In this document: positions 8,759 through 44,462 of the stretch, in pieces | Numbering within the stretch: the stretch's first letter is position 1 | Layout of the letters: each line of letters opens with the position of its first letter | IMG/VR virus record: IMGVR_UViG_3300047472_000134 | Location: 1-64,000 of that record | Direction: 5' to 3' (one strand) | DNA length: 64,000 nucleotides | Origin: a virus | Program-made: the position numbers and the translations under genes | The notes under the pieces: model-generated | Seen by the model: the letters and a program-made list of their open reading frames with translations, nothing else | Database searches by the model: none | What the model was told of the DNA's origin: nothing

Positions 8759-9819
8759 GTCATTGCTCCTTGAATTGTACCTGTGTTGTTGACGGTGCGA
8801 GCCACGCCCTGAATTGCAGCTCCCGCCGGGCCACCTACAGTGCCCGCCGTTCCCGCAGTTCCCGCTGTTGCGTTGCCGCTCGCGCCGGTACTGCCCGTCG
8901 CTCCGATAGTTCCTGCAGTGCCCCAATCACCACCCGCGCCGCCTGGTCCCCCAGTACCACCGGCGCCAGAGTTGCCCCCGTTGTTGCCGCCGGCCGCTCC
9001 CACGCCGCCTGCCACGTTGGAGTTTCCGAAGCCACGACCGCGTCCGCCTGAGCCGCCTACACCACCAGCTGCGCCTGCCATGCTTGCCGGATACTGTCTC
9101 GAAATGTAGTAGAAGACCTGCGATCCGGACTTCGATTGCTGCTGAGCGCGATAGTATGTGACATTACCCTGTGACGTTGATGTCAGCTTGGTATAATCGC
9201 CCGAATTGGACTCAATAACATCGCCGCCATTCCATCGTGCGTTGATTCCAACAGTTGAGCTCGCTGAGCCTGTTCTCCAACGATAAACGTTGACAGTGTA
9301 AAGCGGCCCCTCTGACACAGTATAGGAACCGTTGCCCCCCGTGCCGCCATTACCCCCAAGGCCGCCGCCACCGCCGCCACTGCGGATCGCGCCTGAGTTA
9401 TTTATTTCGACGGACGCGGTTGAGACTTGGATTGCTGGCCCGCCAGCTCCGCTATTCGCGGCTCCCGGAGCGCCTTGGATCTCACCCGCGTTTTCGACCG
9501 AAAGGATGCCACCAAGACCGGCCCCTGTTGTTAAAGCCGCAGTGGATACTGATGTCGCACCGATGATAACGCCTGCGACAATGACGACACGCTTCTTCGT
9601 GGTGGACGCCCAGTCCACAGAACTGAAGAGGGTGGAAACATTGAGATCGTTGATGTTGGCGGCGACTGTCGCAACAATCTCAGCCGCATAGAACTGGATC
9701 CAAGCGTCAGCCTGTTTGACGAAAGCCTTGGTGGCCGAGCGCCAAACACCCTGCGAGTCTCGGGCGAAGACAGACTTGACCTTCCCTTGGACATCGTCCT
9801 GCTTCGCCCAACCGGTCAC
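8755..9819 (-). CDS. Glycine-rich fibre/receptor-binding-like protein
   Basis: GGGGGG and GAGG-type repeats flanking an aromatic central domain. Confidence 0.65.
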
Positions 9820-14370: not shown

Positions 14371-14463
14371 TGTGTTGGGTATATGGGATTGCCTGTCTAA
14401 GTTCGCAATAGATCACGGACTAAGCAAGAATATGCGAGCGGTGTTGTCTCGCACGGCGTGCTT

Positions 14464-18650: not shown

Positions 18651-18707
18651 AATTGCGGTTTTTGAGTTGTCAACGGGCGTCCGAGAGGGCGCCCGATTTT
18701 CGTTCAA

Positions 18708-32444: not shown

Positions 32445-32534
32445 ATGTGGTTCTTTCCACTCAGCATCACTCTTACGATACGAAAAACCCGCACAGGCTG
32501 GCAGGCTAGTGTGCGGGTCATCTTCGTAACATAA
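32445..32534 (+). CDS. 29-aa peptide, candidate type I toxin
   Basis: GGAG RBS; MWFFPLSITLTIRKTRTGWQASVRVIFVT; overlapped by an antisense unit. Confidence 0.55.
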   Translation: MWFFPLSITLTIRKTRTGWQASVRVIFVT

Positions 32535-32568
32535 GAGCGGGGGGCAGGATTTCGGTCCTGTCCCTTGC
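32483..32568 (-). ncRNA. Candidate cis-antisense RNA
   Basis: Minus-strand TTGTAT-N17-TATATT promoter (32603-32575), one hairpin, then a 9-bp stem terminator with U tract. Confidence 0.55.
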
Positions 32569-32604
32569 TCCAGCAATATATCCCCCAAATCACCGAGATA
32601 CAAG

Positions 32605-32841
32605 ATGACCCTGATCGAACGCTTGAAAAAGCGAGCGGCGGAAGACGCTGTCTGCGCCGCAAACAACGAGGCAGTCGCCTCGGCTCTTGATGGCCAGATG
32701 GCTTTATTCGAAGCCGGCAAGGGCGAGCACAACATCTACGCCGTCCGAATGGCCGTTGACCACCGCAATTGTGCAAAGCGCGATCGGCAATGGAGTGCCG
32801 ATCTGCTCGAGGCTATCGAGATGCTGGGGGCGAAGGCATGA
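32605..32841 (+). CDS. Hypothetical protein
   Basis: 78-aa ORF. Confidence 0.55.
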   Translation: MTLIERLKKRAAEDAVCAANNEAVASALDGQMALFEAGKGEHNIYAVRMAVDHRNCAKRDRQWSADLLEAIEMLGAKA

Positions 32842-33027
32842 CAGTCTGCCCACGCTGCGACGACACAGGCCAGGCTGACAGCGGCGGTTCGACGCCTTGG
32901 GGTGAGTGGATCACAATCCCCTGCGACTGCAAATCACAGCCCGAATGCTTCGACTGCATCGGAATGCTGTTCCCGACAGGGCTTTGCTACTGCGATGCCC
33001 AAGGCGTACCGAGGGGAGGACCAGACA

Positions 33028-33288
33028 ATGGGTGAATATGCCGACGCGATGATCGACCGCATGATCTTCGGCGTGGCTCACGACCACCGCCGCAGCCGTC
33101 GCCGGCCGACCTACCAGTCAGGGACCGGCGACTTCATGTGGCGATCGGGTGAGGGCCTGATCAACATGTACGACATGACGCCTGAGCATCGCGAGAACGC
33201 GATGGAAGTCTGCCGACGCAAGGGCAATTCCGGAAAACTCAAACAGCTGCAGCAGGTGCAGGCAGAAATGGCGAAGGTGAAACGATGA
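33028..33288 (+). CDS. Hypothetical protein
   Basis: MGEYAD..ID start motif; RBS GGAGGA. Confidence 0.65.
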   Translation: MGEYADAMIDRMIFGVAHDHRRSRRRPTYQSGTGDFMWRSGEGLINMYDMTPEHRENAMEVCRRKGNSGKLKQLQQVQAEMAKVKR

Positions 33289-33530
33289 CCAACTACCTCT
33301 CGCCCACAGGGGCAGAAATCATCGGTACGGCTGAAAGCGTTCCAGCTGTCGCCGTCATCTCCTCCATTGGTGCTGATGGAACCCCAGTCTATGAGGGGCG
33401 AACAGATCTCTTTTGGGACGCTCAGGTCACACACCGCCGCGACGGCAAGATCCTCTTCCTCGACTACGAGGGTGAGATGTGGACCTTCGACCAGCTCGTG
33501 CCCGAGGAACAATCGGACGCATCCGAGTAG
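33285..33530 (+). CDS. Hypothetical protein
   Basis: ATGA-coupled, acidic. Confidence 0.6.
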   Translation: MTNYLSPTGAEIIGTAESVPAVAVISSIGADGTPVYEGRTDLFWDAQVTHRRDGKILFLDYEGEMWTFDQLVPEEQSDASE

Positions 33531-33545
33531 ATCCTTGCTATTATA

Positions 33546-33642
33546 GAGGGTTAGCCACGCTGACCAGGAAGGAGGTGGTTCAACTGACCGTCCTCGACAC
33601 CGAAGTAGACTTGTAGCCAGGCCCGCGAAAGCGGGCCTTTTT
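33546..33642 (+). ncRNA. Candidate small RNA / micro-ORF transcript with extended Shine-Dalgarno
   Basis: TGnTATTAT extended -10 upstream, AGGAAGGAGGTGGTTCA at 33566-33582, terminator 33619-33642. Confidence 0.5.
33619..33642 (+). terminator. Rho-independent terminator
   Basis: aggcccgc-GAAA-gcgggcct followed by TTTT. Confidence 0.85.
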
Positions 33643-33648
33643 CGTTGA

Positions 33649-33667
33649 GAGTACGACTTACTCTCGC
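33649..33667. promoter_or_regulatory. GAGTA-N5-TACTC(TCGC) palindromic site
   Basis: GAGTAcgactTACTCtcgc upstream of the TAXI gene. Confidence 0.7.
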
Positions 33668-33733
33668 CTTTCACCAATTCTCGCCGCCGCCGAGCCGAGA
33701 TACCAAAATCCCGCAACCTGATCAGGAGATCAC

Positions 33734-34594
33734 ATGAAGAAATTCTTCCTCGCAGCCGCTTTTGCGCTGCTCGCAATTCCCGCCAATGCCGCCGCAATTC
33801 GCCTCTGCACTGGCGCCGCCGACCAGCCCTACGCCGCGGCTGGCGAACTCATCAAGGACGAAGCCAAGGGAAACGGCCTGGATGTCGAAGTCGTCAAGGA
33901 TACTGGTGGTAGCTGGGGAAACGTCCAGCTCTCTCTCCAGGGTAAGTGCGATGCGATTATCGGCCAGCCTGACGCTCTCGCTTACCTCAAGCGCACCGAG
34001 CCGGCGAACGCCGCCAAGTTCCTGCCGATCGCAGACCTTCACCGTGAATATGCCGCCGCAGTCTGCGGAAAGAATTCGGGCGTTACTGACATCGGGGATC
34101 TCGAAAACGACCCGGCCAAGTATTCCATCGCTCTTGGCGAGCGTGGCTCGGGCGCCTGGTTGATCTGGCAGAACTTCATCTCTGAAGACTCCGACTATTC
34201 AGGCGTCCGAACGACAGCCGAAAGCGGCGATGATGCTCTGTCGGCGGTGGCCAACGACCAGACGACGTGTGCCTTGGTACCAGCCGCTCTCGTCAACTCT
34301 GTGATGCGCTCGGCCGACGAGCTGTACAGCGACAACCTGATCCTCGTGGGCGTCAACGACAAGGACTTCGACGACGCTCCTGATGCCCAGGGCAAGCCAC
34401 TCTACACCTACAGCAAGATCCCCTCGGGCACTTACCCGAAGCTGCAGGGCTGGTTCAGCGGCAAGGCGACAATCAGCTGGCTCGCCAAGGTCTACGTCAA
34501 CAAGGACACGCTGACCGACCAGAACGTCCGAAAGGCTTTGATCCGCTCGGTCATGAAGGCCCGCCAGAACGTCGTCTCCAACTTCGGCTCCTAA
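33734..34594 (+). CDS. TAXI-type periplasmic solute-binding protein homologue
   Basis: Sec signal peptide; TG....Y, T.GS..N, Q.DAL, LHRE and G..GSG motifs. Confidence 0.8.
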   Translation: MKKFFLAAAFALLAIPANAAAIRLCTGAADQPYAAAGELIKDEAKGNGLDVEVVKDTGGSWGNVQLSLQGKCDAIIGQPDALAYLKRTEPANAAKFLPIADLHREYAAAVCGKNSGVTDIGDLENDPAKYSIALGERGSGAWLIWQNFISEDSDYSGVRTTAESGDDALSAVANDQTTCALVPAALVNSVMRSADELYSDNLILVGVNDKDFDDAPDAQGKPLYTYSKIPSGTYPKLQGWFSGKATISWLAKVYVNKDTLTDQNVRKALIRSVMKARQNVVSNFGS

Positions 34595-35307: not shown

Positions 35308-35340
35308 AGAGGCCACCCGATTGGGTGGCCTCTTTCATTT
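35308..35340 (+). terminator. Rho-independent terminator
   Basis: agaggccaccc/gggtggcctct stem with downstream T-rich tract. Confidence 0.75.
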
Positions 35341-35390: not shown

Positions 35391-35744
35391 ATGACCCAAA
35401 AATTCCGAAAGGGTGACATCGTCACCGTCCGCGCCGTCGTAACGACCGTTTACGATCATCACGAGGATACAGTTCTCGCGGACCAAATTAAGATCGAGAT
35501 CGACGGCACCCACCAGGGTATCTTCTTGAAGCCGAGCCAGCTCACGATGGAGATCCCATTCTTCGCTCCAGGCGAGCGCGTCCGGACGAAGAGCAGCGTC
35601 AAGAACCCGGTCGATGGCACCGTCATGGCTAACGACGAGGGCCAGGTCTGGGTCAAGTTCGACCACGGCAAGCATGGCACGGTTTCAGCGCTCGAGCTCG
35701 AGCCTATCCCTGCGAAAGTGAGGCCACATGTGGTTGCGGCTTGA
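35391..35744 (+). CDS. Hypothetical protein (two SH3/KOW-like repeats)
   Basis: F.KGD.V and F.PGERV repeats; RBS AGGAG. Confidence 0.65.
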   Translation: MTQKFRKGDIVTVRAVVTTVYDHHEDTVLADQIKIEIDGTHQGIFLKPSQLTMEIPFFAPGERVRTKSSVKNPVDGTVMANDEGQVWVKFDHGKHGTVSALELEPIPAKVRPHVVAA

Positions 35745-43019: not shown

Positions 43020-44462
43020 ATGGAAACTCCTATGACTGATGCAACTTTACGAACCGACCAGGTGGCCGATCTTGCGTTTTACATGGCAAACCCAAAGTGC
43101 CTAAATTTATCGCACGCCGGGACTGGAAAAACACCGTCAGTCTGCGTCATGCAATACTTCATGTGGACGCAGAATGGTGTTGGGACTGTATGGGCACAAC
43201 CTAAATCCCTACTCAAGAAAAACAAGCGTGAACTGCTGCGTTTTACCGACTTTACTGACGCCGATGTGGCAATTGTAGACGGCACTCCGAAGCAGGTTGA
43301 GAAGGCCCTCAACTCAGGCGCGAAGGTTTTTCTAATGGGCTTCCGCCGGCTTACTCTCTGCTGGCGGCAGCTACCTAGCTATGTGAAAGCCGTCCACGTC
43401 GACGAATTTCACATGGGCTACAAGAGCGCAGACTCCCAGAACTCACTGGCGCTCTTCAAAATGTTTGACAGCGGGCGGATGACGCACTTCATCCCAATGA
43501 CCGGAACACTTATCGACGGCAAACTGACGTCAGCTTATCCGGCCATTCGCGTCGTCGAACCGCGATACTATATGTCCCATGAGAACTTTCTACTATACCA
43601 TGGGATTAAAGACTTAGACGGAAAGGTGGTCGCTTGGAAGAACCACGAGAAGCTGTCCAAGATCTTCGGCCGACACGCAATCCTTCGAACCTTTGCCAGT
43701 GTCCATGGTGAACAGGAGGTCGTCCATATTCCAGAGATGGTGGATATGGAGGACAAGCAGAGGTTTTACTACGACAAATTTCACGACGACGCTGTACTGG
43801 AACTCGAGAACTTCTACCTGGACGGGACACTGCCAGGCGTAGCGTTTACCCGAGCCCGCCAGCTCATGGAACACCCGATCGAGTTCCCAGACCTGGCCAA
43901 CCCTGGCCAGTTCATCGACATCCTGAAGGGCGAACCGACTGGCAAGGAAGAGCGGCTCAAGGTTCACTTCGAAGAGCACTATCTCAACGAGAAGCCGCTC
44001 ATCATCTTCACGCCTCTGATTCCGCAGCAGAACCGCGTAGCAAAGCTGCTTGAGCAAGCTGGCATCAGCTACGTGGTCATCAACGGCTCGATCACTCAGA
44101 AACAGCGTGACGCCAACAGCGATGCCTTCGAAGAGGGCAGGGTGCAGGCGGTCCTCGGAACGCCGATGACAGCGTCGTTCGGCTACAACTGGCAATTCAG
44201 CGGGAAGAAGGAGGTGGAGCACATGATCTTCACCTCGCTCGACTTCAGCGATGCCACTTTCGTCCAGGCTCGACAGCGAGCCATTCGTGGCAAGCGGTCC
44301 TCGCCGCTGCGGCTCACGACGCTGGAGTACATCAGCTCTCTCGACCAGCACATCTGCAGCATCATCTACCGGAAGAGCAAGGATGCCAACAAGGTCGATC
44401 CTTCTCGACCTGTTCTCCAACTGTCTGGCTTCGAAGAGAAGAAAGAAAAACTCGCTGCTTGA
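43020..44462 (+). CDS. SNF2-like superfamily 2 helicase
   Basis: GTGKT, DEFH, MTGT and QARQRAIR motifs; start may be ATG 43032. Confidence 0.88.
   Translation: METPMTDATLRTDQVADLAFYMANPKCLNLSHAGTGKTPSVCVMQYFMWTQNGVGTVWAQPKSLLKKNKRELLRFTDFTDADVAIVDGTPKQVEKALNSGAKVFLMGFRRLTLCWRQLPSYVKAVHVDEFHMGYKSADSQNSLALFKMFDSGRMTHFIPMTGTLIDGKLTSAYPAIRVVEPRYYMSHENFLLYHGIKDLDGKVVAWKNHEKLSKIFGRHAILRTFASVHGEQEVVHIPEMVDMEDKQRFYYDKFHDDAVLELENFYLDGTLPGVAFTRARQLMEHPIEFPDLANPGQFIDILKGEPTGKEERLKVHFEEHYLNEKPLIIFTPLIPQQNRVAKLLEQAGISYVVINGSITQKQRDANSDAFEEGRVQAVLGTPMTASFGYNWQFSGKKEVEHMIFTSLDFSDATFVQARQRAIRGKRSSPLRLTTLEYISSLDQHICSIIYRKSKDANKVDPSRPVLQLSGFEEKKEKLAA

Follow-up and report, generated by a model that had tools for sequence, protein, structure and literature searches.

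Positions 33536–33642 of the 64,000-nucleotide (nt) stretch of viral DNA analyzed here (the window, which is the first 64 kb of the 81,516-bp IMG/VR virus record IMGVR_UViG_3300047472_000134, a record with direct terminal repeats) hold a short intergenic element that, on balance, we favor reading as a compact rre-like small messenger RNA (mRNA) cassette carried by a Rhizobium phage. The genes that it resembles, rreB of the Bradyrhizobiaceae and rreR of the Rhodobacterales, encode small mRNAs described by Hahn et al. (2016, RNA Biol 14:1353, PMC5711450), and the accessible text of that paper already sets out the super-Shine–Dalgarno (SD) small-mRNA design as the rre genes of alpha-proteobacteria embody it. 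What appears to be new in the present sequence is the phage carrier, the tolerance of wobble pairs, a different start geometry, and a ribosome contact and reading frame that are conserved without a conserved peptide. We read the cassette as a device of the same kind as rre, not as a member of that group by homology; its transcription, 30S binding and translation, and any physiological role, are things that we infer from the sequence.

At the center of the cassette lies AGGAAGGAGGTGGTTCA, which can pair with the 3′ tail of 16S ribosomal RNA (rRNA). The 16S gene of Rhizobium sp. 2YAF20 carries the tail TGGATCACCTCCTTTCT, its 3′ end reading ...CTGGATCACCTCCTTTCT, and all 17 of the 17 positions of the phage motif pair with this tail, three of them as G-U, confirming the mismatch-free pairing that a preliminary description of this DNA had proposed. 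The Rfam 16S model ends in ...CCTTT, so the last two bases (CT) are perhaps not in the mature rRNA and 15 to 17 pairs are usable. The other landmarks of that description, namely the box TGCTATTAT, the CTG at 33584, the TAG and the terminator, were recovered where it had placed them. Apart from the motif, no site on either strand of the 81,516-bp genome exceeds 12 contiguous pairs, and the next best have 12 and 11. The computed duplex with the 16S tail has an energy of −27.3 kcal/mol, compared with −18.5 kcal/mol for the strongest ordinary ribosome binding site (RBS) of the window, −8.4 kcal/mol for that of the neighboring gene for a secreted binding protein (SBP), and −33.0 kcal/mol for Bradyrhizobium rreB. 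The complementarity extends into GGUGGU/GGUGAU, which matches the 16S-specific AUCACC.

The sole independent homologue, and the single match of a blastn search against plasmids, lies at 129.6 kb on plasmid pRapFH23b of Rhizobium acidisoli FH23. Its locus (L018; NZ_CP035000.1, 126.6–132.8 kb) holds a decayed piece of a related prophage, next to which stand an IS66 element and a SIR2-family gene; here the 81-codon gene that precedes the cassette in the phage is cut to its last codons, and the SBP gene consists of ten codons fused to a homologue of the window gene at 35391. This last, flanking gene shares 44% amino-acid identity between the two loci and only 38% identity at third codon positions, so that unconstrained sites are near saturation. 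Within the footprint, the blocks TTCGGACGCATCCG (14/14), CTTGCTATTAT around the −10 box (11/11), AGGGTT, CCAG.AAGG.GGTG and TAGACTTGT (9/9) are identical in both copies; the terminator and the palindrome that follows it are also kept, and part of the mini-open reading frame (mini-ORF), with identical blocks around it, has diverged to ~58% identity with an indel. Hairpin HP1 at the start of the predicted RNA, the 16S complement and the mini-ORF are kept through change, not through identity. The R. acidisoli complement, AGAAAGGGGGTGAT, forms 14 contiguous pairs, one of them G-U, and all three of the three substitutions inside its 14 paired positions preserve pairing, an outcome reached in 0.2–1.6% of cases under random substitution. 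There are six positions at which one copy or the other deviates from the perfect complement; at five of them its counterpart carries the base of the perfect complement, and the two sequences fit descent from a near-perfect 17-nt complement. HP1 behaves similarly: 7 of 18 positions differ in the homologue, yet a 7-bp hairpin again forms, its register shifted by one, and a hairpin of at least 7 bp was retained in 0.7–1.1% of trials of random substitution. Covariation among homologues, to which the preliminary description had looked for support, is seen as compensatory change in HP1 and in the 16S pairing, in this one homologue.

Among six runs, all of them DNA rhizosphere metagenomes, contigs from four were read for variants and bridging forms. 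A ~97%-identical variant occurs in two of the metagenomes (X2 record 9 and X3 record 16), with 17 differences over 590 nt. Three of these changes fall within 33531–33642, none of them in the −10 box, the hairpin stems or the SD, and the one that falls within the mini-ORF (33598 C>T) is synonymous. Rhizosphere contigs also bridge 33270–33786 and 33497–33786 with 214 and 184 other letters, respectively; forms with and without the cassette (and/or the gene for the 81-aa protein) therefore coexist in these samples.

The preliminary description had found no ATG between the motif and the terminator, which we confirmed, and had suggested a CUG-initiated micropeptide. The frame drew support from the homologue, which in the same place reads TTG-GGC-CCG-ATC-GAA-CCT-CTA-GAC-TTG-TGA, that is, 9 codons and a stop (TTG-GPIEPLDL-TGA). 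The two mini-ORFs differ by an in-frame 3 nt and have TAG or TGA as the stop at the same spot, which in both copies ends 2 nt before the terminator stem. The start lies 8 nt (CTG, window) or 9 nt (TTG, homologue) after the SD core, the 8-nt spacing being that of the phage's strong RBS at 44205, and a simulated random spacer yields such an ORF in 1.3–2.0% of trials. The ATG frame of the homologue reads MPLGPDRTSRLVTRPA; the frame equivalent to the mini-ORF is the TTG one. A micropeptide of conserved sequence was dropped as a candidate, the two copies sharing only a loose hydrophobic-acidic...(V/L)DL pattern. Because the design is kept while the peptide changes, the selected feature would be the contact between RNA and ribosome or the act of translation, not a particular peptide.

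The remaining parts of the cassette are consistent with a self-contained transcription unit. The extended −10 pattern TGnTATWWT occurs at only two sites in the 81.5-kb genome, 9189 and 33536; the other match, TGGTATAAT at window positions 9189–9197, is likely a real promoter. The predicted fold of the RNA from 33546 to 33645 comprises HP1, a second hairpin (HP2) and the terminator, with an energy of −39.3 kcal/mol and z = −2.5. In this minimum-energy fold HP2 buries the SD core, and the 5′ AGGAAG of the complement is largely unpaired. Local hairpins at 33549–33565 and 33572–33595, together with the terminator, replace the long-range stem (GGTTAG/CTGACC and CCAC/GTGG) that had been proposed before. 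The terminator is also present in L001 and L010, two related loci without the element, and is therefore older than the element. The linker 33596–33620, which includes TAGACTTGT, had no complementary target above chance in the phage genome. The Infernal/Rfam search that the preliminary description had envisaged brought no family to light on the plus strand of the element: a permissive cmscan of 32500–34500 gave three matches, all far below gathering scores and none on that strand. The features are collected in Table 1.

Table 1. Features of the cassette and its upstream border in the window
Feature	Position	Strand	Remarks
Inverted repeat TCGGA-CGCA-TCCGA	33513–33526	+	Within the last codons of the gene for the 81-aa protein, at −35 distance from the −10-like box
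Extended −10-like box TGCTATTAT	33536–33544	+	No good −35; putative promoter
Hairpin HP1, GGUUAGC-CAC-GCUGACC, 7 bp	33549–33565	+	Predicted fold; at or next to the predicted transcript start
17-nt 16S-tail complement AGGAAGGAGGTGGTTCA	33566–33582	+	14 Watson–Crick pairs and 3 G-U
Hairpin HP2	33572–33595	+	Predicted; SD core and GGUU pair with GACCG-U-CCUC inside the mini-ORF
Mini-ORF CTG ACC GTC CTC GAC ACC GAA GTA GAC TTG TAG	33584–33616	+	10 codons (LTVLDTEVDL) and stop TAG at 33614–33616
Conserved box TAGACTTGT	33606–33614	+	Last mini-ORF codons and single-stranded linker before the terminator; 9/9 identical in the homologue
Intrinsic terminator AGGCCCGC-GAAA-GCGGGCCU and U run	33619–33642 (stem 33619–33638)	+	Terminator scan

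Taken together, these features suggest how the cassette might work. The extended −10-type promoter would start an RNA of ~93 nt near 33550 or, alternatively, the RNA might arise by processing of an upstream operon transcript. It would begin with HP1 as a protective hairpin, and the free 5′ purines AGGAAG of the maximal SD stretch would seed pairing with the 16S 3′ tail; HP2 would then melt, and a duplex of 12–17 bp (~−27 kcal/mol) would hold the 30S subunit. A weak start codon, CUG (UUG in the homologue), 8–9 nt past the SD core would open the frame of 9–10 codons, whose stop stands 2 nt before the terminator. If the cassette behaves like rreB, its over-long SD and non-AUG start together would give tight 30S binding and weak translation, and the ribosome would be where RNA expression and stability are determined. 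The self-contained 30S-binding RNA of the preliminary description thus stands in outline, as a prediction from sequence layout; its reading as a bulk 30S decoy is not supported.

The known rre genes provide the closest comparison. According to the accessible text of PMC5711450, Bradyrhizobium rreB is a 165-nt mRNA made from an RpoD-like promoter, with a perfect 17-nt complement of the 16S 3′ end that is single-stranded in its 5′ five nt only, and with a small ORF (sORF) of 14 codons whose GUG start overlaps the complement at its last base. The RNA co-sediments with 30S subunits, is found mainly there and is weakly translated; the long SD and the GUG start each keep translation low, and the start codon lowers RNA stability, a stop codon put in its stead having stabilized the RNA (PMC5711450). 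Overexpression of rreB left growth unaffected, the authors arguing that ribosomes far outnumber the RNA, and its function is given as unknown in that text (PMC5711450). Analogues were reported in Rhizobiales and on an Azospirillum plasmid, the genes being conserved across several alpha-proteobacterial orders (PMC5711450). A literature search for rreB together with Shine–Dalgarno returned only this original paper from the literature accessible to us. The phage cassette shares with rre the alpha-proteobacterial setting, a tiny stand-alone unit of promoter, RNA and terminator (here predicted), a stretch of ~17 nt that can pair, G-U pairs included, with the whole single-stranded 16S tail, a non-AUG start and a very short sORF. 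As in rre, only the 5′ few nt of the complement are free, the remainder lying in a hairpin, in the predicted folds of both copies (AGGAAG/AGAA free). As a further likeness, one reported rre analogue is on a plasmid. Binding to 30S and weak translation, demonstrated by experiment in rreB, would apply to the cassette as well. The comparison also brings out differences. G-U pairs make up three of the 17 that the cassette has in the window, and no more than 14 pairs form in the homologue; the sORF has 9–10 codons instead of the 14 of rreB and the 18 of rreR; the RNA is predicted to be ~93 nt, not 165 nt, and its stop abuts the terminator; and its carriers are a phage and a prophage remnant, in place of a conserved chromosomal site. 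In two Bradyrhizobium genomes (rreB, sORF VSFTKRCHLAGIAR) and a Bosea analogue found by pattern search, the −10 box lies 20–27 nt upstream; these copies share with the cassette only the SD stretch and the overall layout, with no homology of RNA or peptide.

We also searched for rre genes of the canonical type. With the canonical rre sequence AAGGAGGTGATCCAGTG and at most one mismatch, 17 of 173 Rhizobium genomes gave a match, and the exact signature was not found there as a gene. Canonical rre genes in Rhizobium were rejected as candidates: among the 12 loci fetched, 11 matches lay within one conserved protein gene (...ERREEVIQW...) and one in another coding region. Present in many Rhizobium genomes, this gene (L081–L092) contains GAGGAGGTGATCCAGTG, a coding stretch with a 16-nt match to the 16S complement that can mislead searches for rre-type genes. 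The exact rre signature GAAAGGAGGTGATCCAGTG occurs in nine IMG/VR contigs (L097–L105), several of them with an rreB-type sORF (VSY(S/P)KRCHLA...) near the end of the locus or contig; in L100, an 11-codon sORF (VSAGKKPKPKC) directly follows the stop of a gene. Several of these matches stand close to where the locus or contig ends and might be flanking host DNA next to a transfer RNA integration site, so we do not claim phage-borne canonical rre genes.

The extended SD stretch, which the preliminary description expected to be conserved in related phages, is kept with 14 pairs in the R. acidisoli copy and is absent from every other locus compared. Downstream of the homologue of the 81-aa protein the element is missing in 31 of 31 other loci, where the best downstream run against the 16S tail is 5–9 pairs, and upstream of the SBP homologue it is missing in 17 of 17 viral loci. 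The closest loci, L001 and L010 (92% SBP identity), have neither the 81-codon gene nor the element; at ~2850–2870 in them, the stop of the preceding gene abuts the conserved terminator stem (ATC TAG GCCCGC...), so interference between ribosome and terminator is geometrically possible there too. Wider searches gave the same picture. The exact 17-mer had no match in viral contigs, and the pattern from box to terminator had none there and two in metagenome contigs, both in unrelated coding DNA. A blastn search against phages returned only matches to the SBP gene or the terminator, and one against plasmids with the R. acidisoli copy as query returned that copy itself and terminator-only matches. 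Short matches, most of them to the terminator, turned up in 56 of 401 Rhizobiaceae genomes, and none covered the element; among 173 Rhizobium genomes, four had a match, the sole real one being the same R. acidisoli plasmid. In 28 related phage records a degenerate super-SD pattern had three matches, against three for the reversed control, and neither the phage genome nor the first 17 loci contained a second copy.

Absent from the 31 and 17 loci above, the element is dispensable and rare, and this weighs against an rre-like cassette. Several properties of the two copies count on the same side. The longest run of Watson–Crick pairs alone is 9 nt, short of the 16 nt by BLASTN of the published rre criterion, which the 17 contiguous pairs would reach only with G-U counted. 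The CUG or UUG start lies 2–6 nt beyond the complement, and in rreB and rreR it is a GUG overlapping the last base of the complement; CUG is moreover a very poor bacterial start codon, and the peptide LTVLDTEVDL is unrelated to VSFTKRCHLAGIAR. A strict two-hexamer promoter scan did not call the box at 33536, the promoter being predicted without a −35 element. In the homologue's own fold, a CCUCU that lies downstream, though not at the homologous position, also pairs with the SD core, and this fold is no more stable than shuffled sequences (z = −0.95), so that conservation of HP2 is only tentative; the MAFFT alignment of the two copies was misaligned in the ORF part, which made RNAalifold on it uninformative. 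Finally, there are two independent copies only, and all probabilities given above are post hoc with n = 2.

The carrier is a temperate-looking Rhizobium phage with a G+C content of ~58% and few relatives at the DNA level, these being Agrobacterium and Sinorhizobium phages (blastn against phages); among the closest protein homologues, one is encoded on an 82.6-kb contig of Rhizobium ruizarguesonis (locus tag ACCS91_33740) and another on a 5.9-kb contig. The cassette occupies an 88-nt gap between the 81-codon gene (33285–33530), whose family is unassigned, with no Pfam or PHROG match, and the strong intrinsic terminator. Beyond the terminator stand the gene for the secreted NMT1/TAXI-like SBP (33734–34594, phrog_6856) and a TerB-like gene, and this SBP–TerB unit ends at a second terminator at 35308. 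The inverted repeat at the end of the upstream gene is identical at 14 of 14 positions in R. acidisoli, including synonymous sites, and is a possible operator or RNA hairpin; its pattern, with 5 matches in the window where 4.3 would be expected, shows no enrichment. A different palindrome, GAGAGTA-N5-TACTCTC with the core GAGTA-N5-TACTC, occurs 7 times in the window, where 0.19 matches would be expected, at 14462, 18706, 20957, 21053, 33647, 44459 and 51898, and there is also one at genome position 56061. Most copies are in intergenic gaps ahead of genes, those at 18706 and 33647 come after a terminator plus TTTTCGTT, and the motif probably serves a phage regulator as its operator or promoter element. 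This palindrome is retained in the R. acidisoli remnant; L001 and L010 instead have GAGTTCT-C-AGAACTC at the same place. A TTAGACA motif, which may be a promoter element of the palindrome-headed units, is clustered near some of the sites (42996, 44503, 44551, 51878 and 51935, and 14400 on the minus strand, in the window). Because the palindrome directly follows the terminator, and elsewhere mostly stands ahead of genes, the SBP–TerB unit probably has its own phage-specific control region.

This control region bears on the main rival to an rre-like cassette, a translation-gated terminator, in which a ribosome stopping at the end of the mini-ORF would cover the 5′ arm of the stem and allow read-through into SBP–TerB, and without translation the RNA would end at 33642. 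We consider it unlikely. Gating would account for the stop codon 2 nt ahead of the stem in both copies and for the stop that abuts the same terminator in L001 and L010; neither a promoter scan nor reading by eye found a sigma-70-like promoter between the terminator and the SBP gene, and the entire interval between the −10 box and the start of the SBP gene is co-conserved in R. acidisoli. Yet the palindrome makes separate control of the SBP unit probable, no alternative antiterminator pairing is evident, the mini-ORF codons suggest no sensed amino acid, and a CUG start with a buried SD is poor for the fast ribosome loading that coupling requires. The pyrBI leader and rph-pyrE are attenuators that work by a leader ORF or by coupling, in which a terminating ribosome can prevent the terminator hairpin. 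The cassette resembles them in that its ORF ends at the foot of an intrinsic terminator. It differs from them in showing neither an evident U-rich pause region nor any nucleotide logic, in having downstream genes that seem to be headed by a separate control motif, and in being absent from close relatives that keep both the terminator and the downstream genes.

The other alternatives are less likely than gating. The cassette could be a nonfunctional relic or an ordinary 3′ untranslated region (UTR), its SD left from a deleted gene start and its likeness to R. acidisoli due to a recently shared mosaic segment. Absence of the element from all other relatives examined would suit this, as would a terminator that predates the element, and, phage genomes being mosaic, the flanking gene that served to calibrate divergence may be older than this segment. 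We nevertheless hold a relic to be distinctly unlikely: the mini-ORF has in part diverged between blocks that are identical, the changes in HP1, SD and stop codon are compensatory and not what drift predicts, and the R. acidisoli copy, lying in a decaying remnant, has features that would date from a functional phage ancestor. A purely noncoding 30S decoy or anti-SD mask, or a sponge for host small RNAs (sRNAs) with anti-SD motifs, with the ORF incidental, strikes us as quite improbable. Its maximal pairing potential, kept in both copies, and the location of rreB RNA mainly on 30S subunits (PMC5711450) speak for a decoy; conservation of the frame, start position and stop, and the failure of overexpressed rreB, an analogue, to change growth in Bradyrhizobium, where ribosomes far outnumber the RNA (PMC5711450), speak against it. 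A literature search for 30S decoy sRNAs found nothing pertinent. Anti-SD motifs of sRNAs are of the CCUCC type. The sponge proposed in the preliminary description fares poorly on this count, the 3′ part of the complement running into a match for the 16S-specific AUCACC and not for such motifs; no host sRNAs were compared. A highly improbable alternative is a stabilizer like STAB-SD, with a 30S subunit parked on the SD to shield the RNA, or a read-through mRNA, from 5′–3′ decay by RNase J. The STAB-SD of the Bacillus thuringiensis cry3A leader binds 30S without directing initiation and blocks RNase J1 (accessible text of PMC4113751), rhizobia possess RNase J (Sinorhizobium meliloti work cited in PMC5711450), and a 5′ hairpin with an SD near the 5′ end is the classic stabilizer layout. 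The cassette and STAB-SD also have in common an SD-like stretch whose pairing with the 16S 3′ end would serve to hold 30S more than to drive protein output. STAB-SD, however, is known in Firmicutes; it lies within a large gene's long 5′ UTR and lacks a separate ORF, whereas here a conserved start and mini-ORF at proper spacing, and then the terminator, follow at once. That strong terminator, 37 nt after the SD, leaves little downstream message to protect, and the start codon of rreB lowers stability (PMC5711450).

If the cassette is a diverged and independently evolving phage version of the rre design, the combination of super-SD, weak start and tiny ORF would be mobile, would tolerate wobble pairs and would be selected even as the peptide changes. 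A bolder extension, which we hold to be rather improbable, is that the phage wields an rre-type RNA as a ribosome-directed tool that grips the anti-SD of the host 30S subunit, either to retune initiation (for example, in favor of weak-SD or leaderless phage or moron mRNAs) or to read ribosome availability and so set its own stability and terminator read-through. Were this so, rre genes would for the first time have a functional context, that of mobile regulators that dock on the ribosome. The phage offers a dispensable, testable copy, with close relatives that have and lack the cassette coexisting in rhizosphere samples.

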